A DNA stretch of 32,000 nt from Candidatus Babelota bacterium (GCA_039809905.1 JBDHVY010000001.1:540001-572000); one strand, 5' to 3'. Shown: positions 1,876 to 30,771, numbered from the stretch's first letter. The notes: generated by a model from the letters alone, not told the origin. Numbers and translations: made by a program.

Positions 1876-4848
1876 ATGGTAAAAAACATAATTACCCTTA
1901 TTTTAAATATTTTTTTGATTATATTTTTTACTCCTTCATATAGCATGGTACCAAAGCTTATAAGACTTCCATCCACGAAAGCCCCCAAACCATCTCTCTC
2001 TCAGCAACGTCCAACCCGAGCTATACAAGTAGAGTACCTACCACAACGCCCTATAAGTGTGCCTATTGGCGAAAAGGTAGATATACAACCATTAAACCCC
2101 ATAGGAAAACCCCAGGTAGTTGATTTACCTGAAATGATCGGCCAACGAGTACCATCTGGCAATAAACCTTCTCGCTCACGTTTAGAGACTATAAAAAATA
2201 TTCAACCTCAGGGCCAATCACAACAAATTATTGATCTTGCAACTCTTGATAAACTCGAAAATCTCAAAAAAAATCAAAAACCTGGGTCTCGCATTGCTGC
2301 TGCACTCACTGAAAAAAAACCAATAGAAGAAGTACAAAAAATTTTTAATCAAGAAGTACATGCGGCGCAAAAAGATGGATATAATATAATACTTATTAGT
2401 TCAAAAGCACCAAAAACTCGTTTGCTTCTTTCTCGGTTCTTTACAAAAACCTTAAACTCTGCTCCTACTTTAACGACAAAATCGATTAAATTAGACAACA
2501 AGCCTTTTCTTTCCTTTATAAAATTACTTGATCAATCTATCATTCTTATTGAACGAGCTTTTACCCATACTTTTGTGCCTCTTTCTATAGGTGAATCTTC
2601 ACCAGAATCCCTATTTGGAAAATTAGGAAATACTATAAAACAAGTTGATGATACTCATGGTGCAAAGATGTTAGCAGAAACAAAAAAATTAGCTGAAGAA
2701 AAAATAGCTGCTGATAAATTAGCTCAAGCAGAAGCTGAAGCACAAGCTAAAGCCGCTGCTGAATTACAAGAAAAAACAAATAAAGAAACTGAAGAAAATG
2801 CAGAAAAAAAACGGCTTGCTGAAGAAAATGCGGAAAAATTACGAGCTAAAGCCCTAGAAGATGCTGAAAAGGCAAGTAAGGCAAAACAAGATGCTGAAGA
2901 AGCTGCAATTGCCGGAGAAATAGAAACTGCTCAAAAAACCGAACAAGCTTTACGAGATCAAGCGCTGGAAGCTGCCGAAAAATTTTCGGAACAAAAAGAT
3001 CTTGCTCAAGAACAGGCTCTAAGAGAAAAAGAAAAAGCAATTGAAGCTTTGAAAGAACAAGCTCTCAAAGAAGCTGAAGCTGCAAGCAAAGCAAAAGAAG
3101 CTGCTGAAGAAGCTTTAACTCTCAATGATCTGAAAATTGCTGAACAAAGAGCTGCTGAAAAAACTGAACTATTAACTCAAGCTCAGCAAGAAGCTCAACA
3201 ATTGGCAGACAAAAAACCCGCACAAGATATTCAACCTGAACCAAAAAAACCAATCGTAGAACAAAAATCACCACAAAAAATGCCTCAAGAAGATACTGAA
3301 ATAACTACCGAACAAGAAAAAACTCTGCAAGATAAGTTCACTAGAGAACAAGCTGTCCGTGAACAAGAAAAGATTGCTGCTGAAAAAGCTACAGAACAAA
3401 AAAATCTTGCTCAAGAACAAACTGCTATAGAAAAAGAAAAAGCAATTGAATCTTTGAAAGAACAAGCTCTCAAAGAAGCTGAAGCTGCAAGCAAAGCAAA
3501 AGAAGCTGCTGAAGAAGCTGCAACTCTCAGAGATTTAGAAATTGCTGCACAAAAGGCTGCTGAAAAAGCTGAACTATTAACTCAAGCTCAACAAGAAACT
3601 CAACAATCAGCAGGTAAAAAACCCGCACAAGACATTCAACCTGAACCAAAAAAACCAATCGCGCAAGAAGAACCACAAAAAATGCCTCAAGAAGATATTG
3701 AATCGACTACTAAAGAAGAGCAAGCTTTGCAAGAAAAGCTTACGATGGAACGAGCTTTGCGCGAACAAGAAAATATTGCTGCTGAAAAATCTTTGCGTGA
3801 GCAAGAGCAACAAAAAGCTTTGCAAAATTTAACTCAGGCCCAGCAAGACGCTCAAAAACTTGCAGATAAAAACCTTGCACAAGACATTCAACCTGAACCA
3901 AAAAAACCACTTACGGAAAAAGAAGAACCACAAAGATCTTCTCAAGCGGAAGAGCCCGAATTACCTTTGGCTCTTGAACCTGCAAAAGAAGCACAAAAGG
4001 AAGAAGGAAAAATAAAAAGAATAATACCTATTCCAATCACAACATCAACAGATTTGCCAGAGGAACAAGAACCCAAACCCGAAATTCCAAAAAATAATGT
4101 TGAAATTTTACCACCAGAATTATCAACCGAAATTGAAGAACCAATCGCAGAACCTGCAGAAGAAACACCATTAACACCATCAAATAAAGCTGAGAAAGAG
4201 ATTCCTTCTCAATCAACAGCCTATAGAAGAAAGCGACCTCAAACAGCTCCGGCAACTGAACCAAAAAAAGCAGCATCAGCTGCTCAAGAAACACCAGCTC
4301 AAACTGGTACATATTCTGGATCACAAATAACCTTGTTTGGATATCCAAAAAGTGAACCATATCGACCATTTATACCGAATCTTCCACGTGCAACACAGCA
4401 GCCTACATCAACAACTAAAGCTCCTACAGACAGAAGCTCTTCTTCACGGCGGTCTACTCCTAAAACATATACTCAAAAACCATCACCAGAACCGGTAGAA
4501 AAAAAACCTCAACCAATAGAAGTTACAAAAAATAGACGTAGCAAAAAACAAATGGCCGATATTGCTATACTTGAAGCTCAAATAAAAAAATCACAAAATA
4601 AAATTGCTTCTCGTGAAACAGTACGACCATCATTTAAAAATTATTTACGAGGCTTACAACATCTAAAAAAAGCCCATGAAACAAAAAAAACAACTACTAT
4701 AGCTGCACAATCAAAAACAAAAACAACAAAAGAAGCAAGCAGCTCAACATGGTCATTTATTCAAAAAACTGCTACAAAAATCACCACTATTATTACTGAT
4801 CTTGGCAAAGCTATTGGTAACTATTTTAAACATTTTTTTGGCAGCTAA
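1876..4848 (+). CDS. Large signal-anchored coiled-coil / Pro-rich repeat protein (990 aa), unknown function
   Basis: Long ORF in an AT-rich genome. N-terminal hydrophobic segment MVKNIITLILNIFLIIFFTPSYS. A/E/K/Q-rich heptad-like central region (AEEKIAADKLAQAEAEAQAKAAAELQEK). QDIQPEPKKP motifs x3. P/T/S/K-rich distal part and amphipathic C-terminus. No convincing SD, so the start is uncertain. Confidence 0.8.
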   Translation: MVKNIITLILNIFLIIFFTPSYSMVPKLIRLPSTKAPKPSLSQQRPTRAIQVEYLPQRPISVPIGEKVDIQPLNPIGKPQVVDLPEMIGQRVPSGNKPSRSRLETIKNIQPQGQSQQIIDLATLDKLENLKKNQKPGSRIAAALTEKKPIEEVQKIFNQEVHAAQKDGYNIILISSKAPKTRLLLSRFFTKTLNSAPTLTTKSIKLDNKPFLSFIKLLDQSIILIERAFTHTFVPLSIGESSPESLFGKLGNTIKQVDDTHGAKMLAETKKLAEEKIAADKLAQAEAEAQAKAAAELQEKTNKETEENAEKKRLAEENAEKLRAKALEDAEKASKAKQDAEEAAIAGEIETAQKTEQALRDQALEAAEKFSEQKDLAQEQALREKEKAIEALKEQALKEAEAASKAKEAAEEALTLNDLKIAEQRAAEKTELLTQAQQEAQQLADKKPAQDIQPEPKKPIVEQKSPQKMPQEDTEITTEQEKTLQDKFTREQAVREQEKIAAEKATEQKNLAQEQTAIEKEKAIESLKEQALKEAEAASKAKEAAEEAATLRDLEIAAQKAAEKAELLTQAQQETQQSAGKKPAQDIQPEPKKPIAQEEPQKMPQEDIESTTKEEQALQEKLTMERALREQENIAAEKSLREQEQQKALQNLTQAQQDAQKLADKNLAQDIQPEPKKPLTEKEEPQRSSQAEEPELPLALEPAKEAQKEEGKIKRIIPIPITTSTDLPEEQEPKPEIPKNNVEILPPELSTEIEEPIAEPAEETPLTPSNKAEKEIPSQSTAYRRKRPQTAPATEPKKAASAAQETPAQTGTYSGSQITLFGYPKSEPYRPFIPNLPRATQQPTSTTKAPTDRSSSSRRSTPKTYTQKPSPEPVEKKPQPIEVTKNRRSKKQMADIAILEAQIKKSQNKIASRETVRPSFKNYLRGLQHLKKAHETKKTTTIAAQSKTKTTKEASSSTWSFIQKTATKITTIITDLGKAIGNYFKHFFGS
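2941..3912 (+). repeat. In-frame tandem repeat, period 405 bp (135 aa), two near-full copies plus a shortened third
   Basis: Matching strings are offset by exactly 405 nt: gaacaagct at 2941/3346, gaaaaagcaattgaa at 3031/3436, cccgcacaaga(t/c)attcaacctgaaccaaaaaaaccaatcg at 3217/3622. A third, degenerate QDIQPEPKKP unit lies near 3873-3909. Confidence 0.9.
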
Positions 4849-4976: not shown

Positions 4977-5387
4977 ATGAACATTTCAAAAAATATGCTG
5001 CTTATCGCAGCTCTTTTTACCATGAATGCCCTTGATGCTAAAGGTGGTAAAAAAACTCCTGCTCAACAACAACCTGTACCAGGAAAACAACCCGGTGCTC
5101 AGCAACCTGCAGCAAAAAAAGTAACTTACAAATCAATCAAAGATGAAATACTACAAGCAACCAATGTAATAAGTAACGGTAAATTTACTCAGAATTTCCT
5201 TGATGAAAAAATAATGAACAATCTCGCTCAACTTGGCAATTATCCTGATGATCTTCCAGGATTTTTCTTGCTAATGGCACGAGACAAACATCTTCCATTA
5301 TCTAATAATGATGCAGATAATTTAAAAAAGCTTTCCAGCATTAATCAACAGATTAAAGAGATATTGCAAGCCCACAAAAATCGATAA
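4977..5387 (+). CDS. Paralog 1 of tandem secreted family (signal peptide + P/Q linker + N-domain only)
   Basis: SD aaaaaggat. Signal-like MLLIAALFTMNALDA followed by KGGKK. P/Q-rich linker. Domain VTYKSIKDEI...DKHLPLSNNDADN aligns with genes 2-4. Confidence 0.8.
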   Translation: MNISKNMLLIAALFTMNALDAKGGKKTPAQQQPVPGKQPGAQQPAAKKVTYKSIKDEILQATNVISNGKFTQNFLDEKIMNNLAQLGNYPDDLPGFFLLMARDKHLPLSNNDADNLKKLSSINQQIKEILQAHKNR

Positions 5388-5423
5388 ACATTTTTAGCCT
5401 TATAAAAAGAGGAAAAATTTATA

Positions 5424-6437
5424 ATGAAATTAATAAAAAACAGCATATATATCATAATTCTATTACATAGCAATATTGATGCTAAAGGTGGAAAAGCTGC
5501 TCCAAATAAACCAGCCCCAGGAAACAAACCAGCACCAACAAAGCAACAAGTTCCAGCAAAAAAGGGGACTTATACTTCTATCCTTACACAAATAAGAAAA
5601 AATCCACCAAAAATATTCAATAAACAAGGAATGGTAGAAAATAGCTTTATGCAATACATAAACTCATTTGATATCTCAAATGAAGCAAAAATAGCTCTTT
5701 TTGAAGCCGGCTTAGATCTTCATGCACCTTTTTCTGGAAATATGGACACTGATCCATTGCTTATAGGAAATATATTTAGCTCACTGAATGATTTTGCTGG
5801 CATGATAAATAATCAAAATCAACCAGCTCCAGAACCAGCTCCAAATCAACCAGGGCCTAATCCTCAGCAACAATTTACACCTGAACAACAAGAGGCCAAT
5901 GACTTAGTTCACAGATATAGTAAAGGTCTTGCAAACTTGAAGTCACAGGAAGCAGCAGACATTATATTTGGAATAGCACGAAAGCTAATATCCACATATC
6001 CTTCTATCACTATTGACCATCAAAATGAAATAGTAAGCATTATATTAGATGCAATAACCTATAATCAAAATACAAAATACACTGTTGATCAAGCAACAGA
6101 CGTAATACATGTTATCGGCTTGTATTGGGCTCAATTAACTCAGATACGAAAAGAAGGACTTGAGCAACAAGAGCGAATAGTAGCCAACGAAATAGTAGCC
6201 CTAAGAAGCCAAGAGATAGACAAGATTCTGTATAAATCTATGTATAATGCTGACCAGATGAAGAATGTAGCAATAAGTTTAATTGAAAAATATCCGGGTC
6301 TTAAAACAAAAGGATACCAGCATACATTCGATTTGTTAATTGATTCAATCGAGACGAAGTTTGGAGTAATGGATAATCAAAAAAAACAGCAAGCTTATGC
6401 AACCATCAGAGACAACTGGACTAATATAATACGGTAA
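5424..6437 (+). CDS. Paralog 2 of tandem secreted family (N-domain + two C-modules)
   Basis: SD aaagagga. IYIIILLHSNIDA followed by KGGKAAPNKPAP. GTYTSILTQIRK...LHAPFSG. Second linker QPAPEPAPNQPGPNPQQQ. Two copies of a helical C-module (ANDLV...YWAQL and ANEIV...DNWTNII). Confidence 0.85.
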   Translation: MKLIKNSIYIIILLHSNIDAKGGKAAPNKPAPGNKPAPTKQQVPAKKGTYTSILTQIRKNPPKIFNKQGMVENSFMQYINSFDISNEAKIALFEAGLDLHAPFSGNMDTDPLLIGNIFSSLNDFAGMINNQNQPAPEPAPNQPGPNPQQQFTPEQQEANDLVHRYSKGLANLKSQEAADIIFGIARKLISTYPSITIDHQNEIVSIILDAITYNQNTKYTVDQATDVIHVIGLYWAQLTQIRKEGLEQQERIVANEIVALRSQEIDKILYKSMYNADQMKNVAISLIEKYPGLKTKGYQHTFDLLIDSIETKFGVMDNQKKQQAYATIRDNWTNIIR

Positions 6438-6558
6438 CATATAAGTTATTGCTTTTTTATCATTAATAATTGTTTTCTCAAGATCTTTTACAGTCAGAGT
6501 ATTGCAACCAGCTTACTCTGACTGATTTTATATCTTTTGTATATAAAAAGGAAATTCC
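6438..6558 (+). repeat. Duplicated intergenic module, copy A
   Basis: The 121-nt spacer aligns along its whole length with 7399..7519: catataagtt..ttgct...attaataatt...cttttaca(g/a)tcagagtattgcaac(c/a)agcttactctga(c/t)tgattttatatctttt...aggaaattcc. Confidence 0.9.
6491..6538 (+). terminator. Hairpin + T-rich tract between paralogs 2 and 3 (putative intrinsic terminator/attenuator)
   Basis: CAGTCAGAGTA (6491-6501) and TACTCTGACTG (6514-6524) form a perfect 11-bp stem with a 12-nt loop, followed by attttatatctttt. Confidence 0.5.
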
Positions 6559-7398
6559 ATGAAAATCAAAAATATTTTATATCTCATAATCTTCATGCCA
6601 GTTATTACCATAGAATCAAAAAGTGGAAAAGCTGCTGCAAATAAACCAGCTCCAGTACAACAACAACCAGCGCCAAAACAACCACAACAAAAACCAGCCC
6701 CCCAAAAGAATCAACAACCACAGGCTCAAGAAACATATACTTCTTTATTGTCCTACATTAGAAATGCATCACCACAGATGATATTTAAAGATGGTGATTT
6801 TACTCCAGATTTTCTTAACAACAAAATACAAGGCATTAACGACCCAACAGCAGTAGCAAGTTTATTGCAAGCAGCGCGAAATCTTCATATGCCGCTATCA
6901 GCAAATGATCAGGACAATGCACATTTAATAACACAATCAAATAAAAGAATTAGTGATTTAATGAATGGTTGGTTTGGTGTTCCTGCAGCACAGCAACCTA
7001 AATCACCACAGCAGCAACAACCTAAATCACCACAGCAACAACAACCTAAATCACCACAGCAACAACAACCCGCAAAAGGGAATCAGCCTAAAGCTCCGCA
7101 ACCTAAACCAGTACATGAAGACCCGATAAGCATAACTGCTCGTGAAATAGTAAAAAAGAGAAAAGAAGACCTAAACAAGATATTATATACTCCTAATAAT
7201 ATTTACCAAGAGGGAGGCATTATCGGTGCAGCAATAGACCTAGTAAACAAACATCCAGAAATTACAGAGCGTAGTACATTCGAGATATTAGTATATGAGA
7301 TTGAGGCTGAGTTTGGAAAAGACTTACCTCGTGAAAAAAAAGAGTCTATTCTAAATACCATCGAAAAAAATTGGGATTTTATTATTAGCCAACAATAG
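6559..7398 (+). CDS. Paralog 3 of tandem secreted family (N-domain + one C-module)
   Basis: SD aaaagga. ILYLIIFMPVITIES followed by KSGKAAANKPAP. ETYTSLLSYIRN...ARNLHMPLSANDQDNAHLI. PKSPQQQQ x3 linker. C-module AREIV...EKNWDFII. Confidence 0.85.
   Translation: MKIKNILYLIIFMPVITIESKSGKAAANKPAPVQQQPAPKQPQQKPAPQKNQQPQAQETYTSLLSYIRNASPQMIFKDGDFTPDFLNNKIQGINDPTAVASLLQAARNLHMPLSANDQDNAHLITQSNKRISDLMNGWFGVPAAQQPKSPQQQQPKSPQQQQPKSPQQQQPAKGNQPKAPQPKPVHEDPISITAREIVKKRKEDLNKILYTPNNIYQEGGIIGAAIDLVNKHPEITERSTFEILVYEIEAEFGKDLPREKKESILNTIEKNWDFIISQQ
6997..7068 (+). repeat. 24-bp x3 in-frame tandem repeat (PKSPQQQQ)
   Basis: cctaaatcaccacagca(g/a)caacaa occurs at 6997, 7021 and 7045. Copies 2 and 3 are identical; copy 1 differs at one base. 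Confidence 0.95.
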
Positions 7399-7519
7399 AA
7401 AACATATAAGTTTCTTGCTCTTATTATTAATAATTATTTTTTGAGGTCTTTTACAATCAGAGTATTGCAACAAGCTTACTCTGATTGATTTTATATCTTT
7501 TATCTAAAGAGGAATTCCT
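7399..7519 (+). repeat. Duplicated intergenic module, copy B
   Basis: See copy A. Same length (121 nt) and same order of blocks, including the hairpin and the SD region. Confidence 0.9.
7454..7501 (+). terminator. Hairpin + T-rich tract between paralogs 3 and 4 (putative intrinsic terminator/attenuator)
   Basis: CAATCAGAGTA (7454-7464) and TACTCTGATTG (7477-7487) form a perfect 11-bp stem, followed by attttatatctttt. Relative to copy A, stem pair 3/9 changes from G-C to A-T. Confidence 0.5.
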
Positions 7520-8230
7520 ATGAAACTCAAAAGTATTTTATATCTCATAATTTTTATGCCAATTACTACTATAGAATCAAAAGGTGGAAAAGCTGCTGCA
7601 AACAAACCAGAGCCTAGACCTGCAAGACCAAGACAAGAACAACAAAAACCAGCTCCTGGTCGACAACAGCAAGCACAAGAAACATATACGTCCCTCTTGC
7701 AATACATAAGAAAAGCACCTTCAGGAAATATATTCAAAGATGGTGAATTTACTCCAGATTTTCTTGGCAAAACGCAACGCATTAAACCTACTGATTTGAT
7801 AGCAGTAGAAGCTTTATTGCAAGCAGCCCGAAATCTTCATATGCCATTATCTGGAGATGATGAGGAAAATTCACATTTAATAACCCAAACAAATGCAATG
7901 ATAAGTGATTTAAAGAATAAGTGGTTTCCGGTAAATCTAGAACTATCTCCAGAACAAATAGCTGCTAACGATATAATACTCAAGCATGGGAAAAAGGCAT
8001 TTTTAGCTTATCATGAAGGTACAAAAACATCATTTTTTCACGTGGCAAAACTTCTTGTAGCCAAAATGCCCGAATTAAGAAAAGCAGCTCCTGATCAAGT
8101 ATCACAAATGTTATTAGATGCTATTGAAACACAACTTAACAAAAGATACACCGCTGAGCAAACAGCAAGCCTGAAAGAGCATATCAACAACCATTGGAAT
8201 GATTTACTTGAACAAGTACCAGCACAATAA
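7520..8230 (+). CDS. Paralog 4 of tandem secreted family (N-domain + one C-module)
   Basis: SD aaagagga. ILYLIIFMPITTIES followed by KGGKAAANKPEP. ETYTSLLQYIRK...ARNLHMPLSGDDEENSHLI. C-module ANDII...NNHWNDLL. Confidence 0.85.
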   Translation: MKLKSILYLIIFMPITTIESKGGKAAANKPEPRPARPRQEQQKPAPGRQQQAQETYTSLLQYIRKAPSGNIFKDGEFTPDFLGKTQRIKPTDLIAVEALLQAARNLHMPLSGDDEENSHLITQTNAMISDLKNKWFPVNLELSPEQIAANDIILKHGKKAFLAYHEGTKTSFFHVAKLLVAKMPELRKAAPDQVSQMLLDAIETQLNKRYTAEQTASLKEHINNHWNDLLEQVPAQ

Positions 8231-8285: not shown

Positions 8286-8340
8286 AAAAGCACTTGGTAA
8301 TCTTGAAATGTATATTCAAGATTACCAAGTGTTTTTATTT
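8286..8340. terminator. Bidirectional intrinsic terminator between paralog 4 (+) and the OMP gene (-)
   Basis: Perfect 17-bp stem CACTTGGTAATCTTGAA (8291-8307) / TTCAAGATTACCAAGTG (8315-8331) with a 7-nt loop, flanked by aaaag on the left and ttttta on the right. Confidence 0.8.
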
Positions 8341-8355
8341 TATAAATATATCGAA

Positions 8356-9975
8356 TTAAAACGATACTCCCATTTTTGCCCAAATCACCCATCTGCGTGG
8401 AACAGCATCATTATTTTTTGAGAAGGTAAATGAACCACCTACATTACCAAATAATGGATATTCTCTTTCATAAAGATGGAATCCTAATGTACCATACAAC
8501 GTGTTGCTTAATATTGCAGGTGTTGCAGCGGTATTAAGATCAAGATCTGTTACTTGAACAAGAGCTGTTTCATATCGTGCTGATGAAATCGGAATTAAAA
8601 GTACACCTGGTGCCGGAGGAGTGGTAGCTGGTAAATCAATACTGCTTACAACTTGCTCATAGTATGGATTACCATTGATCGTACGAATTGGGTTTGTTTG
8701 GCCCGCACCTAAGAAATGTTTTAATGCTACAACTGGTTTCCATTGACATTCAAGCTCAACTTTTTCAGCCCGTTTTGCAAGGAAGTTATACCCAACTTCT
8801 GCCTGAAACCTTCTGCATGTAAATACAAATGCCGTATTGATATCATGCGTCAAACCAGGAGTTACTTTTACTTCTTGCGTAAATACATTTATACCAGGCG
8901 TTGACATGTTGGCACGATGAGGATCAGTTGCTGGCAATGCAAATGCTTCTGCTGCTTCTTCTTGGCTTGCGTAAACGGGTAAGTAACGGCTCCATGGTCT
9001 ATTTTTTAAATCAAAAGAACGCACTTGATCTTTTTTAAATAAAATTTCAGTATGATTAGCTAATTCATATCGGATGTTTTTATCACCATCGTCACTATTC
9101 CAAATCTCTAGACCTAAACAGCTACCAAACATAATACCAAAGTATTTACCTCGTCCTACAATTGGCTCAAAAACATATTCGCCTTCATTTCTGTTACCCG
9201 TTGGAATAACAAGACCTAAATAGGATTCCATATGCGCTGGCTCATGCTGCAACCATTCATAGCCTACTTTAAATTCAATATCAGCCAATCCTGTTTTTTT
9301 CATAGATGAATTTGCACATATTTTACCATACTTCCAATCTGATTGCGCAAATGCTTCTGTCATATTAGCAACAACTACATCATTTGCTGCTTCATCCGCT
9401 CCGCCACCGTTGTTTACAATAAACTCACAAAAATTCATATCATTTTTAACATGCTGAATTGAAGTAGAAGCACTTAACCAGAAACCTCTTCCAATATTAT
9501 GGTTTTTCCAAAAACTATATCTTCCATGAAGACCTAAACCAATAATGCTTTGTTGTGGTGAAATAGTAATATTACTTTGAAAGTCTTTATTAATCGTAAA
9601 AATATTAAAATCTTGTGCTAAAAGATTTTGCTTACCAAATCCTGCTTGCCCTTCAACGGGTCCAACTTCAGCAACGCTGAGTTTTTCTTGGCCATCAAAG
9701 AAGAAATAACGTGCTAAATCATCTCCATTAGTTGTACGACTACCAAGAAGAACTGCTTGAAATACTCCTCCATGCCCATCCTCCGGAAGAAGATTACGAT
9801 CAGAGCGGCATCCTGAAACAAGCTCAGGCGTTTGTGATACAAAAAGTGGATGTATTGCCAATACTGATTTACCTGTTGCCTCTAACAAAGAACTATCAGT
9901 AACGTTGCAATTACCATACAGATGTGCTCCCATGAAACTTATAAGCAGTAGAGGCAATATATTGCGATGTTTCAT
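8356..9975 (-). CDS. Outer-membrane beta-barrel protein (porin/MOMP-like), 539 aa
   Basis: Strong SD (aaggagaagaATG). Signal peptide MKHRNILPLLLISFMGAHLYG. Alternating hydrophobic/Gly-rich strands. C-terminal beta-signal ...WAKMGVSF ends in Phe. Exact family not determinable by eye. Confidence 0.7.
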   Translation of the reverse strand: MKHRNILPLLLISFMGAHLYGNCNVTDSSLLEATGKSVLAIHPLFVSQTPELVSGCRSDRNLLPEDGHGGVFQAVLLGSRTTNGDDLARYFFFDGQEKLSVAEVGPVEGQAGFGKQNLLAQDFNIFTINKDFQSNITISPQQSIIGLGLHGRYSFWKNHNIGRGFWLSASTSIQHVKNDMNFCEFIVNNGGGADEAANDVVVANMTEAFAQSDWKYGKICANSSMKKTGLADIEFKVGYEWLQHEPAHMESYLGLVIPTGNRNEGEYVFEPIVGRGKYFGIMFGSCLGLEIWNSDDGDKNIRYELANHTEILFKKDQVRSFDLKNRPWSRYLPVYASQEEAAEAFALPATDPHRANMSTPGINVFTQEVKVTPGLTHDINTAFVFTCRRFQAEVGYNFLAKRAEKVELECQWKPVVALKHFLGAGQTNPIRTINGNPYYEQVVSSIDLPATTPPAPGVLLIPISSARYETALVQVTDLDLNTAATPAILSNTLYGTLGFHLYEREYPLFGNVGGSFTFSKNNDAVPRRWVIWAKMGVSF

Positions 9976-10059
9976 TCTTCTCCTTTTTTGTGTTTAATTC
10001 ACCTATTCGGTTTTTTACTCTTGTTGTATTGTGTAACATGGATGGAAGCGGTAAGTCAA

Positions 10060-10194
10060 TAGCAACGCTGTTGCTATGGGGTCCCCGGCGGTTTAAGCTG
10101 GGGGTAGAAGATTAATGCCAAATATAGTTGGGCACCCCACAAAAACAAAGTTTTTGTGCTGATGGCCGAATAAGATTGGGGATTATAATCTTAT
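10060..10194. other. GC-rich multi-hairpin island in the OMP/hisS divergent intergenic region (candidate structured leader or small RNA)
   Basis: Hairpins: TAGCAAC-gct-GTTGCTA (10060-10076); CCCCGGC-ggtttaa-GCTGGGG (10083-10103, one G-T pair); enclosing helix TGGGGT (10077-82) / ACCCCA (10134-39); CACAAAAAC-aaa-GTTTTTGTG (10138-10158); ATAAGATT-ggggattat-AATCTTAT (10170-10194). Visibly more GC-rich than the flanks. Confidence 0.35.
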
Positions 10195-10264
10195 CTGTCC
10201 TTAAAATCAAAAATCGTTTACACTCTTAATAATAAAAATCCACTCTTAAATACAGGATTGCCTA

Positions 10265-11524
10265 ATGATTCCACGCGTCAAAGGAACACAAGATTTTATC
10301 GATTGCACCCTCTTCAACTTTATTATCGATTCAATCAAAAAACATCTCACTTTCTATCACTTCACAGAGATTCAAACACCTATATTAGAATCAGTTGATC
10401 TATTTGTACGATCATTGGGAACACATACTGATGTAGTATCAAAAGAAATGTTTTTGATAGAATCACGGCAAGAAAGCAGTGAAGGTAGAATTTGTTTACG
10501 TCCAGAAGGAACCGCACCAACTGTACGCGCATTTAATGAGCATCATATTCAAACTATACCGTGGAAAGTTTTTGCATGGGGTCCAATGTTTCGGTACGAA
10601 CGTCCCCAAAAAGGAAGATTCCGTCAATTTCATCAAGTTACCATGGAAATTATTGGTTCAGGATCTGTTGCAGAAGATGTGCAATTTATCACCATGCTTG
10701 ATCGTTTTTTTCACGAAAATTTAAAATTACATAACTATGCACTGGTGCTTAATTTCCTCGGTTGTTCAGATGATCGTGAAAAATTTCTTGTTACGTTAAA
10801 AAAATTTTTAGACAAACCTGGTATCGTTGAAAATATCTGTGCTCAGTGCAGAGAACGCAAAGAACACAATATCATGCGTATTTTCGATTGCAAAAATCCA
10901 CAGTGCCAAGAACTTTATAAAACAGCTCCGCACATTGCTGATAATTTGTGTGCGCAATGCTCACAAGAGTGGCAAGATTTACAAAATCAGTTATCGCTTT
11001 TATCTGTTTCTTATGCATACAAGCCAACATTAGTACGTGGTCTTGATTATTACAACAAAACAGTATTTGAATTTGTGAGCAAAGATCTTGGCGCTCAAGA
11101 TACTTTTTGCGGTGGAGGACGCTATAATCAATTAGTTAAAGAACTTGGAAATAAACAAGATCAACCTGCAATTGGAGCAGGTCTTGGTATAGAACGCCTT
11201 ATGCTTTTGCTTGAACCATTGCGTGATCAATTGCATATTGCGCATGCACCAGCACTTCACATGATTATTCCTATGAAATCTTCACAGCATACACTTGCAT
11301 TACTCCTTGCAGATGAATTACGAGCTCACAACATTTGTACCGATATTATTCTGGAAGGTTCTATGAAAAGTATGATGCGTAAAGCAAGCAGTTTTGGTGC
11401 AGCATATGCATTAATCTTAGGCGAAACAGAGCAACAAAATCGCACCGTTATGGTCAAAAATATGGTGACTGGAACTGAAGAATCTGTTGCTCAAGTTGAT
11501 CTGGTAAAATATTTAAAGAAATAA
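10265..11524 (+). CDS. hisS: Histidyl-tRNA synthetase
   Basis: Class II HisRS motifs: RPEGTAPTVRAF, GPMFRYERPQKGRFRQFHQ, GGGRYNQL, AIGAGLGIERL, and a C-terminal anticodon-binding domain. Confidence 0.95.
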   Translation: MIPRVKGTQDFIDCTLFNFIIDSIKKHLTFYHFTEIQTPILESVDLFVRSLGTHTDVVSKEMFLIESRQESSEGRICLRPEGTAPTVRAFNEHHIQTIPWKVFAWGPMFRYERPQKGRFRQFHQVTMEIIGSGSVAEDVQFITMLDRFFHENLKLHNYALVLNFLGCSDDREKFLVTLKKFLDKPGIVENICAQCRERKEHNIMRIFDCKNPQCQELYKTAPHIADNLCAQCSQEWQDLQNQLSLLSVSYAYKPTLVRGLDYYNKTVFEFVSKDLGAQDTFCGGGRYNQLVKELGNKQDQPAIGAGLGIERLMLLLEPLRDQLHIAHAPALHMIIPMKSSQHTLALLLADELRAHNICTDIILEGSMKSMMRKASSFGAAYALILGETEQQNRTVMVKNMVTGTEESVAQVDLVKYLKK

Positions 11525-21268: not shown

Positions 21269-21946
21269 TTAGGTCATAACCTGGCTTTTTCTTAAAGCCT
21301 CATAGATTAAGCTCGGAACACGAGATTTAATCTTTTGGTATCTATCACCACGAAGAGCATAACGGACTATTCTTTTAGTGTCTTTATCTTGCAGTATGCC
21401 AAGCAGTGGATGTTCTTCGGGTTTAACAGTAGTTAAGGCCCCGCGATTTTCCAGCATTTTATCTATAAGTAACCCATTACGAAGCATTCTTGATGGATAA
21501 TAAAAATACGCATAACTTTTATAGTCGAGCGGCGGATTATCATAACTTGCTACTTTGGATATATAACGAACAATACAATTAACCAAAGGAATTATAGTAT
21601 GTTTATGATAAATAATATTAAAATCACGGACAGGTCTACCATCTAAATCAGTCATATTAACGTTTGCACCCCATTGCAAAAACAATGTTGCTAACACAGG
21701 ATTGCTCATTCGCACAGCTTTCATAAGCGGCGTTGTTTTGTACATAGGTGATACATAATTAGGATCAGCTCCCAAAGAAAGCAGTTCTTTTATGCTTTTT
21801 ATATCGTAAGGATTATTAACTATCGCGCAAGAAAGACTAAGATTCGGATCTTTCTTTCTTTTTTTATCAACGCCTTCCACAATATCCATTGTTTGAATAA
21901 TACTAACAATAGATAAGCATGTACTAAGCATTACTCGTTTTATCAT
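21269..21946 (-). CDS. Ankyrin-repeat protein with N-terminal signal-like segment
   Basis: ANK consensus stretches: IKELLSLGADPNY, TPLMKAVRMSNPVLATLFLQWGANVNMTDLDGRP. N-terminus MIKRVMLSTCLSIVSIIQT. Good SD (aaggaag). Confidence 0.75.
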   Translation of the reverse strand: MIKRVMLSTCLSIVSIIQTMDIVEGVDKKRKKDPNLSLSCAIVNNPYDIKSIKELLSLGADPNYVSPMYKTTPLMKAVRMSNPVLATLFLQWGANVNMTDLDGRPVRDFNIIYHKHTIIPLVNCIVRYISKVASYDNPPLDYKSYAYFYYPSRMLRNGLLIDKMLENRGALTTVKPEEHPLLGILQDKDTKRIVRYALRGDRYQKIKSRVPSLIYEALRKSQVMT

Positions 21947-22069: not shown

Positions 22070-22999
22070 ATGATACCAGTATTTTTATTAGCCCTATCTA
22101 TAGTTTCTCTCACCTATCATGCAGAAATTTCACCAAAAGCTATCGGACCATATGTAGATTTTGACACAGCAATGAAAAAAAATGTTTTCCCCGATGTTTA
22201 TCAACTAACAGCCCATATTTTTCAAACAGACAGTTATCGCTTATACGATTTTTTCAAAGATCTTTTTGAAATACAGATCCATCAAGAAATAGGAACAGAA
22301 TTAAAAATACCTAAAATAATTCATCAAATTTGGCTTGGAAGCCCTTTTCCAGAAGAATTTAAAGCTCTGCAACAATCATGGATTGACTATCACTTAGATC
22401 GTGGGTGGGTATACAAATTATGGACAGATGAAGATGTTGCACAACTACAATTGCACAACCAAGAATTTTATGATGCAACTGATAATTATGGCGTAAAATC
22501 GGATATTTTACGCTGGGAACTTCTCTATCATTTCGGAGGAGTTTATATTGATACCGATTATGAATGTTTACGAGCTCTTGATGAATTACACTATACGTAT
22601 GATTTCTATACCGCTCTTCAACCACTTGATACCGCATTTATACAACTTGGGGCAGCTCTCGTTGGTTCACGGCCTGGACATCCTATTTTAGAACATTGTA
22701 TTGTAACAATTAAAGATGATTGGCATCACAAAGGAGCTCCGAAAAAAACGGGACCTGTACATTTCACCAAATCATTTTATGCAATAGCTGGAAAAGATGG
22801 CAATAAAGATATCGCGTTTCCCGCATTCTATTTTTATCCACTTGGCTGCAGAGAAACAAATGACAATAGATGCACATGGATAGAGCAAGGCTCCTTTGCG
22901 GTGCATTGGTGGGCAAAAAGTTGGATGCCACAAAATTATCGCCCTATGCTTTCTAGAAACATAGATAATGCATTATCAGCTCAAAGTTGGAATGATTAA
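22070..22999 (+). CDS. GT32-like glycosyltransferase (DXD sugar-binding region family)
   Basis: IPKIIHQIWLGSPFP ... WVYKLWTDEDV ... KSDILRWELLYHFGGVYIDTDYECL is the Och1/Gly_transf_sug pattern. N-terminal MIPVFLLALSIVSLTYHA. Strong SD aaggag. Confidence 0.7.
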   Translation: MIPVFLLALSIVSLTYHAEISPKAIGPYVDFDTAMKKNVFPDVYQLTAHIFQTDSYRLYDFFKDLFEIQIHQEIGTELKIPKIIHQIWLGSPFPEEFKALQQSWIDYHLDRGWVYKLWTDEDVAQLQLHNQEFYDATDNYGVKSDILRWELLYHFGGVYIDTDYECLRALDELHYTYDFYTALQPLDTAFIQLGAALVGSRPGHPILEHCIVTIKDDWHHKGAPKKTGPVHFTKSFYAIAGKDGNKDIAFPAFYFYPLGCRETNDNRCTWIEQGSFAVHWWAKSWMPQNYRPMLSRNIDNALSAQSWND

Positions 23000-28460: not shown

Positions 28461-30593
28461 TCATTGTGGCTTTTTACCTAACCACGCTTTAGCTGTTGCT
28501 ATCCAGCGATTGATAAAATCTGGCAATATCACCGAATCAGAAGCTGGTAGTATATCTAATGGTTCTGATAATGATGGATATTCACCCAAAGATGGTGTAG
28601 GGGGTAACGTTGATGGCAATGACTCATAAGCAAGCGATTCTGATGGTAATGAAGATGACCACAATAGATCAGACAATAATTTTTTGATACTTTCTGGAAA
28701 GAAGTCTAAATTTTGATTTCCTATAGGATTTGCTCCCAAACACATTTGATAGAGAGGCATTAGTAAATTCCAATCGTAATTATTTATCTGTTTCAAGATT
28801 TGATCTTCTTCATCAGTTAATAAAGTCCATAAGGTTAAATTGCATCTCGAATCAGCCAGCCATGATCTGTCAGGAATACTCGTTGTAACCAATTTCTTGC
28901 CGTCATGGCTCCAAGCCACTGAAGTATAGTAAAAATCTTTAGATTCTGGAATTGTATAATGTGTTATATGATCATAATCACTTATATTCCAAAATAGAAT
29001 CCGATTACCATTATTTTCATAGTTTATAGAAACCATTGTACTGCTATCAGGACTGAAAGCTATAGCATTACTATTATATCCAAGTTCTAATTGGAAAATC
29101 TTAGGCAATCTCCAGAAATTTTCTTGCTGCTTTATGAGGTTTTTATGAGTTATGTTATTCCTGTCATCAATATCCCACAAAATAAGACTCCGCTCAGACA
29201 GCGGATTAGTTCCTCTTTCTCCATCATCGCCATGTGAGACAATTTTTGTTGTATCTGGACTAAATTTTACTTCATACACATTCGGCTGAGCAGTAAGGCC
29301 TATTGCCTGCAAAGTAGATACATCCCATATTTTCACATTTTTCTCATCACCCATTCCTCCTGAAACAACCTCCGTCGAATCAGCATTAAATGCCATGCAA
29401 TTAACAAGTCCCTTATAATTTCCTATAAATTTTTTGATTGTTCCTTCACGTCTATCAGTATGTATCTCGGTCATAGTAATATTGTCTCCTTTAGCAAAGG
29501 AACTGACTAATATTTTGGTACCATCTGGACTAACTACCACAGACCGAACTATTGCACCTTCAAGTTTCTTTACTTTCAAATCATCTTTTTTGGATAAATA
29601 GCCTTGGCTTCCAATCATTATTTTCAATTCACCAACAGAATTCAGGTAAATAAGAGATTGGTCATCAGAAGGAATAGTTACCGACACAACAGATTCAGCT
29701 CCCTCAAAAGAAAATAATTTTTTACCTGTTAAATCACATATAGTAAGATATTCGCGAACATTTCTAGGAGTGAATTTATGTCCAAAGATAATCTTAGAAT
29801 CATCTGCACTAAACATTGCGCAGGTAAAATATTCATTGTTTTTCTGCATTTTTTCTGAGACTATTATTTTTTTTCTTTTTTGCGCATACTTTTGAATAAT
29901 CAGGTCTTTTAACCATTGCTTAATTGGTCCAACCACTAATAATTTTTGTACATCAACGTTCAGCTCTGCAAATTTATCATCTCTGATGATGTTATTATTT
30001 TCGTATACTCTTTTTTTTATTTCAGCATACATTGCTTCTTCAATAGTTCGACCACAGCTTAAGAATTTAATACAATCAATAGCATCAATAAGTCGACCTA
30101 ACGAATATTTTTCTATGATGCTTGTTATGTTATTTTTTTGTGACAATGTATCTTGACCCTCAAGATATTGCGTAAAAATAGCATAAATATCTTTAATCAC
30201 TCTATTAGAATAAGAAAGCGGAATTTCAATCTTTTCCGATGAATCAGGACCTTCTATCATGTCTTTTAAAGTATCACTCACCTCAAGTACACGCTGCGAA
30301 AAATAAACTCCCTCAGATGAGAGCTCATTGGGATCACTTGAATACACAAAAATTTCATTGTTTTTAAATTCTGGCTGCACTTGTTTATCAACCGTTTCAA
30401 CGGACGATGCTTCTTTATTAAGTCTTTCAACAAAAGATGCTATCTCTTTCATTTGCCTCAATCGTAGATACTCAGGAAGAAGAGATTGAGGCAAAACTTC
30501 ATCATCTTTATTTTCCATTCCTGCGACATCACAGGAAACACATAACACAATTAAACACAGTAAATAGAACTTTTTATTGCTGAAATAATTCAT
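28461..30593 (-). CDS. WD40-type seven-blade beta-propeller protein with signal-like N-terminus and possible Skp1/BTB-POZ-like segment
   Basis: About 7 repeats of the pattern hxxhxFSPDxxxhh...h.hW (VKFSPDTTKIVSHG...LILWDI, IAFSPDSSTMVS...ILFWNI, VAWSHDGKKLVTTS...LTLWTL, etc.). N-proximal EVSDTLKDMIEGPDSSEKIEIPLSYSNRVIKDIYAIFTQY resembles Skp1/POZ. The GAGGA SD favours the ATG at 30593 (MNYFSNKKFYLLCLIVLCVS) over the TTG at 30605. Confidence 0.75.
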   Translation of the reverse strand: MNYFSNKKFYLLCLIVLCVSCDVAGMENKDDEVLPQSLLPEYLRLRQMKEIASFVERLNKEASSVETVDKQVQPEFKNNEIFVYSSDPNELSSEGVYFSQRVLEVSDTLKDMIEGPDSSEKIEIPLSYSNRVIKDIYAIFTQYLEGQDTLSQKNNITSIIEKYSLGRLIDAIDCIKFLSCGRTIEEAMYAEIKKRVYENNNIIRDDKFAELNVDVQKLLVVGPIKQWLKDLIIQKYAQKRKKIIVSEKMQKNNEYFTCAMFSADDSKIIFGHKFTPRNVREYLTICDLTGKKLFSFEGAESVVSVTIPSDDQSLIYLNSVGELKIMIGSQGYLSKKDDLKVKKLEGAIVRSVVVSPDGTKILVSSFAKGDNITMTEIHTDRREGTIKKFIGNYKGLVNCMAFNADSTEVVSGGMGDEKNVKIWDVSTLQAIGLTAQPNVYEVKFSPDTTKIVSHGDDGERGTNPLSERSLILWDIDDRNNITHKNLIKQQENFWRLPKIFQLELGYNSNAIAFSPDSSTMVSINYENNGNRILFWNISDYDHITHYTIPESKDFYYTSVAWSHDGKKLVTTSIPDRSWLADSRCNLTLWTLLTDEEDQILKQINNYDWNLLMPLYQMCLGANPIGNQNLDFFPESIKKLLSDLLWSSSLPSESLAYESLPSTLPPTPSLGEYPSLSEPLDILPASDSVILPDFINRWIATAKAWLGKKPQ

Positions 30594-30771
30594 ACGATTC
30601 CTCAATTAAACTCATTTAATTATCAAAATCCTATCAAGTATTTATCATAAGATATATTCAAAAAGAAAATCAATAAATCGTTTTTATAGTAAAAAACAGC
30701 TGAAAAGGTACTTGATTTCTTAAACAAAAAGAATATAGAGTTAGATCATATTTTAATCAAAAGGAATGCAT

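Follow-up and report, generated by a model that had tools for sequence, protein, structure and literature searches.

An apparently undescribed family of predicted exported proteins in a tandem array on a variable island of a Dependentiae chromosome

What is the role of four adjacent, related genes whose products match no described protein family? The question is raised by a stretch of 32,000 nucleotides from Candidatus Babelota bacterium (GCA_039809905.1 JBDHVY010000001.1:540001-572000), referred to here as the window, in which the genes g1 to g4 follow one another on one strand at positions 4977-8230. A sequence-only reading had singled them out as a tandem array of paralogous, modular proteins with export signals and had likened them to the fast-evolving surface or host-directed proteins of host-associated bacteria. 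This interpretation has survived every test that we ran, and that the proteins are surface or host-directed is something we continue to infer. The explanation we favor, and to which we give about an even chance of being right, is that g1-g4 encode Sec-exported, soluble, nonenzymatic binding proteins that are diversifying in situ and act at the parasite-host interface.

Open reading frame (ORF) calls and BLASTP comparisons bear out four consecutive, same-strand paralogous ORFs, with the following layout.

4977-5387, + strand: g1, 136 aa by ORF call; signal peptide 4977-5039, linker 1 5040-5117, N-domain 5118-5384, neither linker 2 nor C-module
5424-6437, + strand: g2, 337 aa by ORF call; signal peptide 5424-5483, linker 1 5484-5561, N-domain 5562-5825, Pro/Gln linker 2 5826-5873 (16 aa), C-module of subtype A 5874-6158, C-module of subtype B 6162-6434
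6559-7398, + strand: g3, 279 aa by ORF call; signal peptide 6559-6618, linker 1 6619-6726, N-domain 6727-6981, Pro/Gln linker 2 6982-7116 (45 aa), C-module of subtype B 7117-7395
7520-8230, + strand: g4, 236 aa by ORF call; signal peptide 7520-7579, linker 1 7580-7675, N-domain 7676-7933, three-residue junction 7934-7942, C-module of subtype A 7943-8227

The architectures are N for g1, N-A-B for g2, N-linker-B for g3, and N-A for g4, in agreement with the earlier count of zero, two, one, and one C-modules; that of g1, the N-domain alone, is the most frequent in the family. Linker 1, rich in Pro, Gln, Lys, and Ala, spans 26 to 35 aa in the four proteins, the five-helix N-domain measures ≈85 to 89 aa instead of the ≈75 first estimated, and the helical C-module ≈95 aa. 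Most of the motifs read from the sequence are where they were said to be: LDAKGGK, IDAKGGK, IESKSGK, and IESKGGK at the N termini of g1 to g4, T-Y-[TK]-S-[IL] at the start of the N-domain, and A-[NR]-[DE]-[IL]-[IV] and W-x-x-[IL] at the start and end of the C-module. The motif LH-x-P-[LF]-S is likewise present in the N-domains, except that g1 reads K-H-L-P-L-S and has no L-H, and the second Pro/Gln linker holds for g2 and g3 but shrinks to three residues in g4 and is absent from g1. A GGA/GAGG ribosome-binding motif lies 5' of each ATG. Because g2 starts only 36 nt past g1, these two genes are probably cotranscribed.

The relationship among the four genes is strong. BLASTP aligns g3 with g4 at 62 to 67% identity across their first ≈140 residues (E 1e-51 to 1e-58), the full length of g2 with g4 (E 8e-24), and g1 with the N-terminal halves of g2-g4 (E 1e-8 to 1e-12), and by these comparisons they are true paralogues, far beyond chance. 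All four C-modules can be aligned end to end and form two subtypes, A and B. In Smith-Waterman z-scores against 500 shuffles, the subtype A pair (the first C-module of g2, g2C1, and that of g4, g4C) reaches 16.8 and the subtype B pair (g2C2 and g3C) 20.9; three of the four cross-subtype pairs score 5.3 to 6.4, and the fourth, g2C1/g3C, is weak at 2.2. The two C-modules of g2 belong to different subtypes and show no recent internal duplication. The N-domain and the C-module are unrelated by hhalign, and the proteins are therefore not made of one repeated unit.

These similarities suggest how the array may have arisen. N-domain identity is 67% between g3 and g4 and ≈34% between g2 and either of them, and the module identities (27% for g2C1/g4C, 35% for g2C2/g3C) are in line with these values. 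The simplest history would begin with an N-A-B ancestor that duplicated to give g2 and an ancestor of g3 and g4, with a later g3/g4 duplication and reciprocal loss of module A from g3 and of module B from g4; the repeat-bearing linker 2 of g3 would then sit where module A had been. Gene conversion of the 5' halves of the genes is an alternative to this sequence of duplication and loss. At the DNA level, g3 and g4 share ≈87% identity in their 121-bp upstream spacers, 88% in the signal peptide, 77% in the N-domain, and 47% in the C-module.

Linker 2 of g3 contains a short tandem repeat.

6986-7070, + strand: tandem repeat, 24 bp × 3.6 copies, 93% matches, within linker 2 of g3

The repeat encodes (QQQQPKSP)n units and marks the linker as expandable. 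Two Logan assemblies contain identical contigs, L001 (SRR27308757) and L002 (SRR27308745), which both begin inside it, at residue 162 of g3, and the exact g3 protein is recorded from NCBI only, with g1, g2, and g4 recorded in Logan too. Since short-read contigs start there, the repeat evidently breaks short-read assemblies, and its copy number may be variable.

We asked whether these reading frames are genes at all. Their lack of functional annotation anywhere, their low-complexity linkers, and the short antisense ORFs that overlie those linkers would suit nonfunctional ORFs, decaying pseudogenes, or annotation artefacts; the antisense ORFs are themselves spurious by-products of low-complexity sequence. 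The ratio of nonsynonymous to synonymous substitution (dN/dS, Nei-Gojobori) between g3 and g4, a comparison that the sequence-only reading had proposed, is 0.36 in the signal peptide, 0.17 in the linker, and 0.41 in the N-domain (dS 0.54); it speaks for real genes and gives no signal of positive selection. The remaining gene pairs have saturated dS values near or above 1, at which dN/dS is uninformative. Intact ORFs with ribosome-binding motifs, dN/dS of 0.17 to 0.41, the recurrence of intact homologous ORFs at the same locus in nine or more independent genomes or contigs, and very confident AlphaFold models establish g1-g4 as real genes and effectively refute the pseudogene explanation.

We next consider what the proteins look like. 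AlphaFold2 predicts residues 53 to 236 of g4 as all-helical with a mean predicted local distance difference test score (pLDDT) of 91.3, and the N-domain alone with a pLDDT of 90.9 and a predicted template modeling score of 0.81. The N-domain model has five helices, with a conserved and exposed-looking loop, H/Y-x-P-[LF]-[ST]-G-[ND], joining helices 4 and 5, and in the C-module model four main helices form a bundle, to which the DSSP assignment adds two short helical segments. Pfam-A, NCBIfam, PHROGs, and PADLOC searches with g1-g4 gave best E values of 0.0009 to 0.9, far under the curated cut-offs, and sequence-profile searches of the PDB gave best E values of 0.067 for the N-domain and 0.088 for the C-module. 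Foldseek against the PDB reached E 0.22 with template modeling (TM) scores of at most 0.28 for the two-domain model and E 5.2 with TM scores of at most 0.37 for the N-domain alone; against the viral BFVD library the best E was 0.56. In the Pfam, PDB-profile, and Foldseek searches, neither sequence nor fold resembled a periplasmic family, Ivy, MliC, PliC, and Skp included, and a housekeeping periplasmic family, which would have contradicted the original interpretation, did not emerge from models of this confidence. The family and both folds thus appear undescribed, as had been supposed. No polar residue is invariant family-wide, and several subfamilies have Tyr in place of the motif His; since there are no invariant catalytic-looking residues and the sole conserved His can be replaced, the N-domain and C-modules are, judging from sequence, most likely binding modules rather than enzymes.

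To delimit the family, we searched 1.84 billion representative proteins exhaustively with a hidden Markov model (HMM), which returned 128 matches at E ≤ 1e-3, 51 of them at E ≤ 1e-10, all with the N-domain at about residues 45 to 150. Every database relative with a name is called a "hypothetical protein," and no Pfam domain is present in any of them. Word-indexed searches of 5.8 billion proteins found, with g4 as query, nothing besides g4 but g3 and a single metagenomic relative; a 16-sequence N-terminal profile gave 20 unnamed matches, and a 14-sequence C-module profile gave nothing at E ≤ 1e-3, such that the C-module was not seen outside the family. Pattern scans of the GTDB species representatives, based on the family alignment, and of metagenomes found no relative. 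About two-thirds of the members are 120 to 180 aa long and, like g1, consist of the N-domain alone; BLAST sorts the C-terminal extensions of the 50 longer members into 13 clusters or more, and jackhmmer detects divergent C-modules in about ten further members, which carry one or two of them. The close relative P0003, whose N-terminal part is 58 to 62% identical, has a different C terminus. One protein from the exhaustive search, P0083 (606 aa), carries seven tandem ≈27-aa repeats (…ATFTPEYVSKLANKANLQGIAKDQLE…), each matching N-domain profile positions 11 to 51, ahead of a hydrophobic C-terminal half; the repeats could be a repeat-derived relative of N-domain helices 3 and 4 or a chance resemblance.

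The organism to which the array belongs bears on its possible function. The HisRS encoded nearby has eight relatives at 55 to 84% identity, including those of "candidate division TM6 bacterium SOIL31" and a "Candidatus Babeliales bacterium," and because of these relatives, the conserved gene order, and a G+C content of 35%, the window can be placed by sequence in the Dependentiae (TM6/Babeliales); the source chromosome measures 1.23 Mb. The only known lifestyle of the phylum is intracellular parasitism of protists (PMC4776705, PMC4378268, PMC6561590), which agrees with the host-associated bacterium that had been guessed from the DNA. The family itself appears, from the sequences found, confined to one Dependentiae subclade related to "TM6 bacterium SOIL31," and was not found in the more distant Dependentiae contigs L009-L011.

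Gene order around the array is kept in every recovered context (L004-L008, L012, L014, L015, and a JGI contig). First in this order are secA, a small minus-strand lipoprotein-like gene, and a gene for a 600- to 1140-aa repetitive exported protein; next comes the array, always on the hisS strand, and then a convergent gene for an outer-membrane protein (OMP) of ≈540 aa, followed by hisS, pfkB, a P-type ATPase gene, and ompH. By a strict N-domain HMM, the window holds four N-domain genes, L005, L006, and L012 three each, L003 at least two, L004, L008, and L014 one each, and L007, L009-L011, and L015 none; local HMM iteration recovers divergent members in the relatives' slot, so that divergent arrays occupy the same locus in related genomes. 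Between genomes, family members are 25 to 33% identical, and in the same genomes secA is 82 to 92%, hisS 78 to 84%, OMP 62 to 74%, and pfkB 64 to 78% identical. Given this difference, the family turns over much faster than its neighbors, and the fast evolution with module gain and loss that had been proposed is seen both within the array and between the syntenic arrays of relatives. Rapid evolution at one fixed spot suggests, without proving, a role at the host interface.

The same neighborhood could instead point to periplasmic or cell-envelope proteins that are exported by Sec and retained, where they would partner the OMP or the repetitive protein or would protect the envelope, for instance by inhibiting host phagosomal hydrolases as periplasmic lysozyme inhibitors do. 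In favor of such a function, the array always lies downstream of secA, between the repetitive exported protein and the convergent OMP gene; the signal peptides come without a recognisable secretion or anchoring motif past Sec; the exposed-looking loop between helices 4 and 5 (H/Y-x-P-[LF]-[ST]-G) is conserved; and dN/dS is below 1. Housekeeping envelope factors, however, are normally conserved and single-copy, whereas here there are zero to four copies per genome, with an identity of 25 to 33% against 62 to 74% for the adjacent OMP. The distribution is also patchy, the family being missing from L009-L011 despite their OMP-hisS pair, the searches showed no resemblance to Ivy, MliC, PliC, Skp, or periplasmic families, and the fixed position may merely mirror the stable gene order of small genomes. 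We regard an envelope function as unlikely, although it is the main rival of the explanation that we favor.

The evidence for export comes from the N termini. A rule-based check of the residue pattern in 137 full-length family members found a fit to the Sec/signal peptidase I type in 130, g1-g4 included, in accordance with the export signals first noted. The n-regions of the four proteins (MKLK, MKIK, MKLIK, and MNISK) are charged by Lys only, and 94 of the 130 have n-regions with a net charge of +2; the uncharged core spans 10 to 17 residues in nearly all of them, shorter than a membrane-spanning helix. A [VIAL]-x-A site stands right before the first Lys or Arg, with Ala at −1 in 104 and V, I, A, or L at −3 in 97 of the 130 members. 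In the window, the predicted cleavage sites are L-D-A|K, I-D-A|K, and, twice, I-E-S|K, and the [DE]-[AS]-K-[GS]-G-K motif is thus predicted to combine a signal peptidase I site with a basic mature N terminus. Linker 1 has a family-wide median of 33 aa (range 10-78) and a composition of 16% P, 15% A, 12% T, 11.5% Q, and 10% K, and mature g1-g4 are basic, with isoelectric points of 8.0 to 9.7. No anchoring or secretion motif beyond Sec was recognisable in the family. We rejected a lipoprotein (signal peptidase II) assignment, as g1-g4 contain no cysteine anywhere and hence no lipobox, and a Tat-substrate assignment, as their n-regions contain no twin arginine.

An uncleaved N terminus would make the proteins signal-anchored in the inner membrane, with a Pro-rich spacer crossing the periplasm in the manner of TonB or TolA and the helical domains held near the outer membrane. 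Spacers rich in Lys-Pro and Ala-Pro do follow the hydrophobic segment directly, and basic residues flank its core on both sides, so that g1-g4 resemble TonB and TolA in having an N-terminal hydrophobic segment and then a Lys/Pro-rich spacer. They differ in the core, whose 10 to 17 residues, compared with ≈20, are too short for a typical membrane-spanning helix, in a [VIAL]-x-A site, present across the family and characteristic of signal peptidase I, in the absence of a TonB_C, TolA, or other Pfam match, and in a spacer that varies from 10 to 78 aa, which is hard to square with a fixed periplasmic span. Membrane anchoring of this kind seems to us highly improbable.

A near-invariant leader (MKF[LS]K..[IL]A[IL][VA]AL.A[IV]...) with a Pro-rich linker also occurs in front of unrelated mature domains. 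Examples are found in L005 at 7029-7403 and 7607-7972, in L006 at 6692-7480 and 7679-8029, in L015 at 10001-10480 (P0026), and in P0022-P0025, and several of these proteins occupy the same island slot. One export leader seems to be common to different small secreted families of the clade.

Sharing of the N-terminal part brings up cassette delivery, in which signal peptide, linker, and N-domain would form a trafficking module for interchangeable C-terminal cargo, as in polymorphic toxins and effectors. The N-terminal part is conserved while the C-terminal extensions make up no fewer than 13 unrelated clusters, P0003 joins a closely similar N-terminal part to a different C terminus, and the island of relatives holds the same signal peptide and linker with other mature domains. 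Variable C termini are indeed a feature shared with polymorphic toxin systems; however, about two-thirds of the members, g1 among them, have no C-terminal extension and therefore no cargo, toxin, enzyme, and immunity domains were not recognised by Pfam, NCBIfam, or PADLOC, and modules A and B are old and vertically diverging, not freshly swapped. We think it very unlikely that delivery of cargo is what the N-domain does. An immunity-protein array was also considered and rejected, because neither a toxin partner nor a PADLOC or Pfam signal was seen.

Two paralogous hairpins lie in the spacers before g3 and g4, and a third, terminator-like hairpin follows the array.

6491-6524, + strand: hairpin in the g2-g3 spacer, 11-bp stem followed by a T-rich tail, ≈35 nt 5' of the g3 start
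7454-7487, + strand: hairpin in the g3-g4 spacer, paralogous to 6491-6524, 11-bp stem and T-rich tail
8288-8334, no strand assigned: terminator-like hairpin, 20-bp stem, bidirectional, common to the end of g4 and the convergent OMP gene

In both 121-bp spacers the hairpin belongs to the centroid fold (z −3.7 and −1.8), and one stem pair differs between the two copies by a compensatory change from G-C to A-T on both sides. No equivalent hairpin was found 5' of g1 or g2, and Rfam and tRNA scans of the window gave no match. The spacer hairpins could be inter-gene terminators or regulatory or RNA-stability elements.

A broader proposal, which we consider doubtful, would make the whole island from secA to the OMP gene a dedicated locus for diversifying the secretome of one Dependentiae clade by reuse of one export cassette, with the N-domain as a new fold for docking to the host or to the type II secretion system (T2SS). 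The cassette would comprise a regulatory hairpin, a ribosome-binding site, a near-invariant signal peptide, and a basic Pro-rich tail; mature domains would change behind it, and the C-modules would tune specificity. If this were true, the family would be the first defined effector family, with its delivery signal, for this uncultured phylum.

In the explanation that we favor, binding proteins acting at the parasite-host interface, the precursors would carry a type I signal peptide cleaved after [IL]-[DE]-[AS], just before the conserved Lys, and the mature protein would present a basic, flexible tail rich in Pro, Gln, Ala, and Lys, then the five-helix N-domain, and then zero to two C-modules. 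After crossing the inner membrane by Sec, the proteins would leave the cell through the T2SS or in vesicles and would bind host or cell-surface partners at the interface. Their diversification would proceed within the position-fixed island, between secA and the OMP gene, by tandem duplication, C-module loss and gain, and expansion of linker repeats. Signal-peptide cleavage, export beyond the periplasm, the binding role, and a host target are what we infer here. The T2SS is the sole secretion system found in the phylum (PMC4378268, PMC4776705), and the predicted secretome is dominated by signal-peptide-bearing ORFans (PMC6561590), which together make Sec export followed by T2SS or vesicle release the most plausible route. 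No T2SS genes lie within the 32-kb window. In Chromulinavorax, 44% of coding sequences have signal peptides, a set enriched in ORFans, and outer-membrane vesicles have been seen (PMC6561590).

Several observations weigh against this explanation. The strictly conserved neighborhood of secA, repetitive exported protein, and OMP fits an envelope role equally well. The g3/g4 dN/dS of 0.41 indicates relaxed purifying selection, not overt positive selection. Lys or Arg at the +1 position is unusual in efficiently exported Escherichia coli proteins, and the cleavage site or the topology could differ from that predicted.

Comparison with better known proteins shows what is familiar in the array and what is not. 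The sequence-only reading had spoken of an undescribed system; what we find has no multiple components and is better called a gene family that occupies a variable island. A tandemly expanded, lineage-specific, signal-peptide-bearing ORFan family in such an island is of a kind that has been recognised before, both in Dependentiae and in other intracellular bacteria. The nearest likeness is the ORFan secretome of Chromulinavorax destructans and Babela massiliensis (PMC6561590, PMC4378268), in the same phylum, where domain-less proteins carry Sec signal peptides, paralogous families cluster in islands, and T2SS or vesicle delivery and a role in host manipulation are presumed. The families described there have ankyrin repeats, Ulp1-AAA, beta-propellers, or Cys-rich beta-barrels (PMC6561590, PMC4378268), and the N-domain/C-module family is not among them. 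In a Pfam scan, g1-g4 have no eukaryote-like repeats (ankyrin, WD40, F-box), unlike the known Dependentiae repeat effectors.

Outside the phylum, the Borrelia erp and mlp genes, with their upstream homology boxes, and the Mycoplasma variable lipoproteins encode proteins with a lipobox Cys that undergo antigenic or phase variation in vertebrate hosts. By analogy, the array resembles them in its clustered paralogues, its conserved upstream region and leader, its divergent mature part, and its expandable repeat linker; in contrast, g1-g4 have no Cys, show no sign of phase-variable switches, and belong to parasites of protists. Bacterial cellulases and chitinases are modular secreted proteins with interdomain linkers rich in Pro/Thr or Pro/Gln, and an analogy may be drawn to their signal peptides, flexible linkers of variable length, and independently folding modules that vary in number. 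The modules of g1-g4 differ in being small and all-helical, and they resemble neither catalytic nor carbohydrate-binding domains.

Dependentiae, which parasitise protists obligately, are widespread; nearly half of their proteins carry export signals, and of these proteins most are uncharacterised. The family offers a compact handle on this secretome, with two confidently predicted helical folds that have no known relatives, a clear evolutionary mode, and a fixed, comparable address. Should the proteins reach the host, they would be candidate effectors and a test case for protein delivery by a type II-only parasite; if they are retained in the envelope, that would point to some unknown function there, one that evolves fast. 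Either outcome would be useful and neither would change a paradigm.

Three further genes frame the array within the window.

1236-1655, − strand: small conserved ORF, 42 to 51% identical in relatives, no family match
1876-4848, + strand: repetitive protein, 990 aa, rich in Ala, Glu, Lys, and Gln, the upstream member of the variable island
8356-9975, − strand: predicted OMP, 539 aa, with a signal peptide and a C-terminal Phe, the downstream border of the island

The N terminus of the small ORF reads …IHAC in the window and …LFGC in L007 and L008, which resembles a lipoprotein signal. The 990-aa protein has a signal-like N terminus and a hydrophobic C-terminal tail, its gene contains a 405-bp × 2 tandem repeat at 2971-3789 with 85% matches, and searches of Pfam and NCBIfam gave nothing. 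Its positional counterparts in relatives are 600 to 1140 aa long and have similar N termini (...RLP..KP..) with no tblastn similarity, and it is predicted to be another fast-evolving exported protein of the island. The 539-aa protein, also with no Pfam or NCBIfam match, lies beside hisS in all close relatives at 62 to 74% identity and is 27 to 37% identical in distant ones; it is presumably an outer-membrane beta-barrel, of an uncharacterised major OMP family of Dependentiae.

In L004, the secA match (732-1957, in the metagenome-assembled genome OY969561.1) is spread over several adjacent frames, which suggests assembly frameshift errors and calls for caution with the ORF lengths and member counts of that contig. 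Elsewhere in the window are effector-like or eukaryote-like genes typical of Dependentiae: an ankyrin-repeat gene (21269-21946, − strand), a gene for a 714-aa WD40 protein (28461-30605, − strand), and a DXD glycosyltransferase gene (22070-22999, + strand) with a weak match to the TcdA/TcdB catalytic domain.

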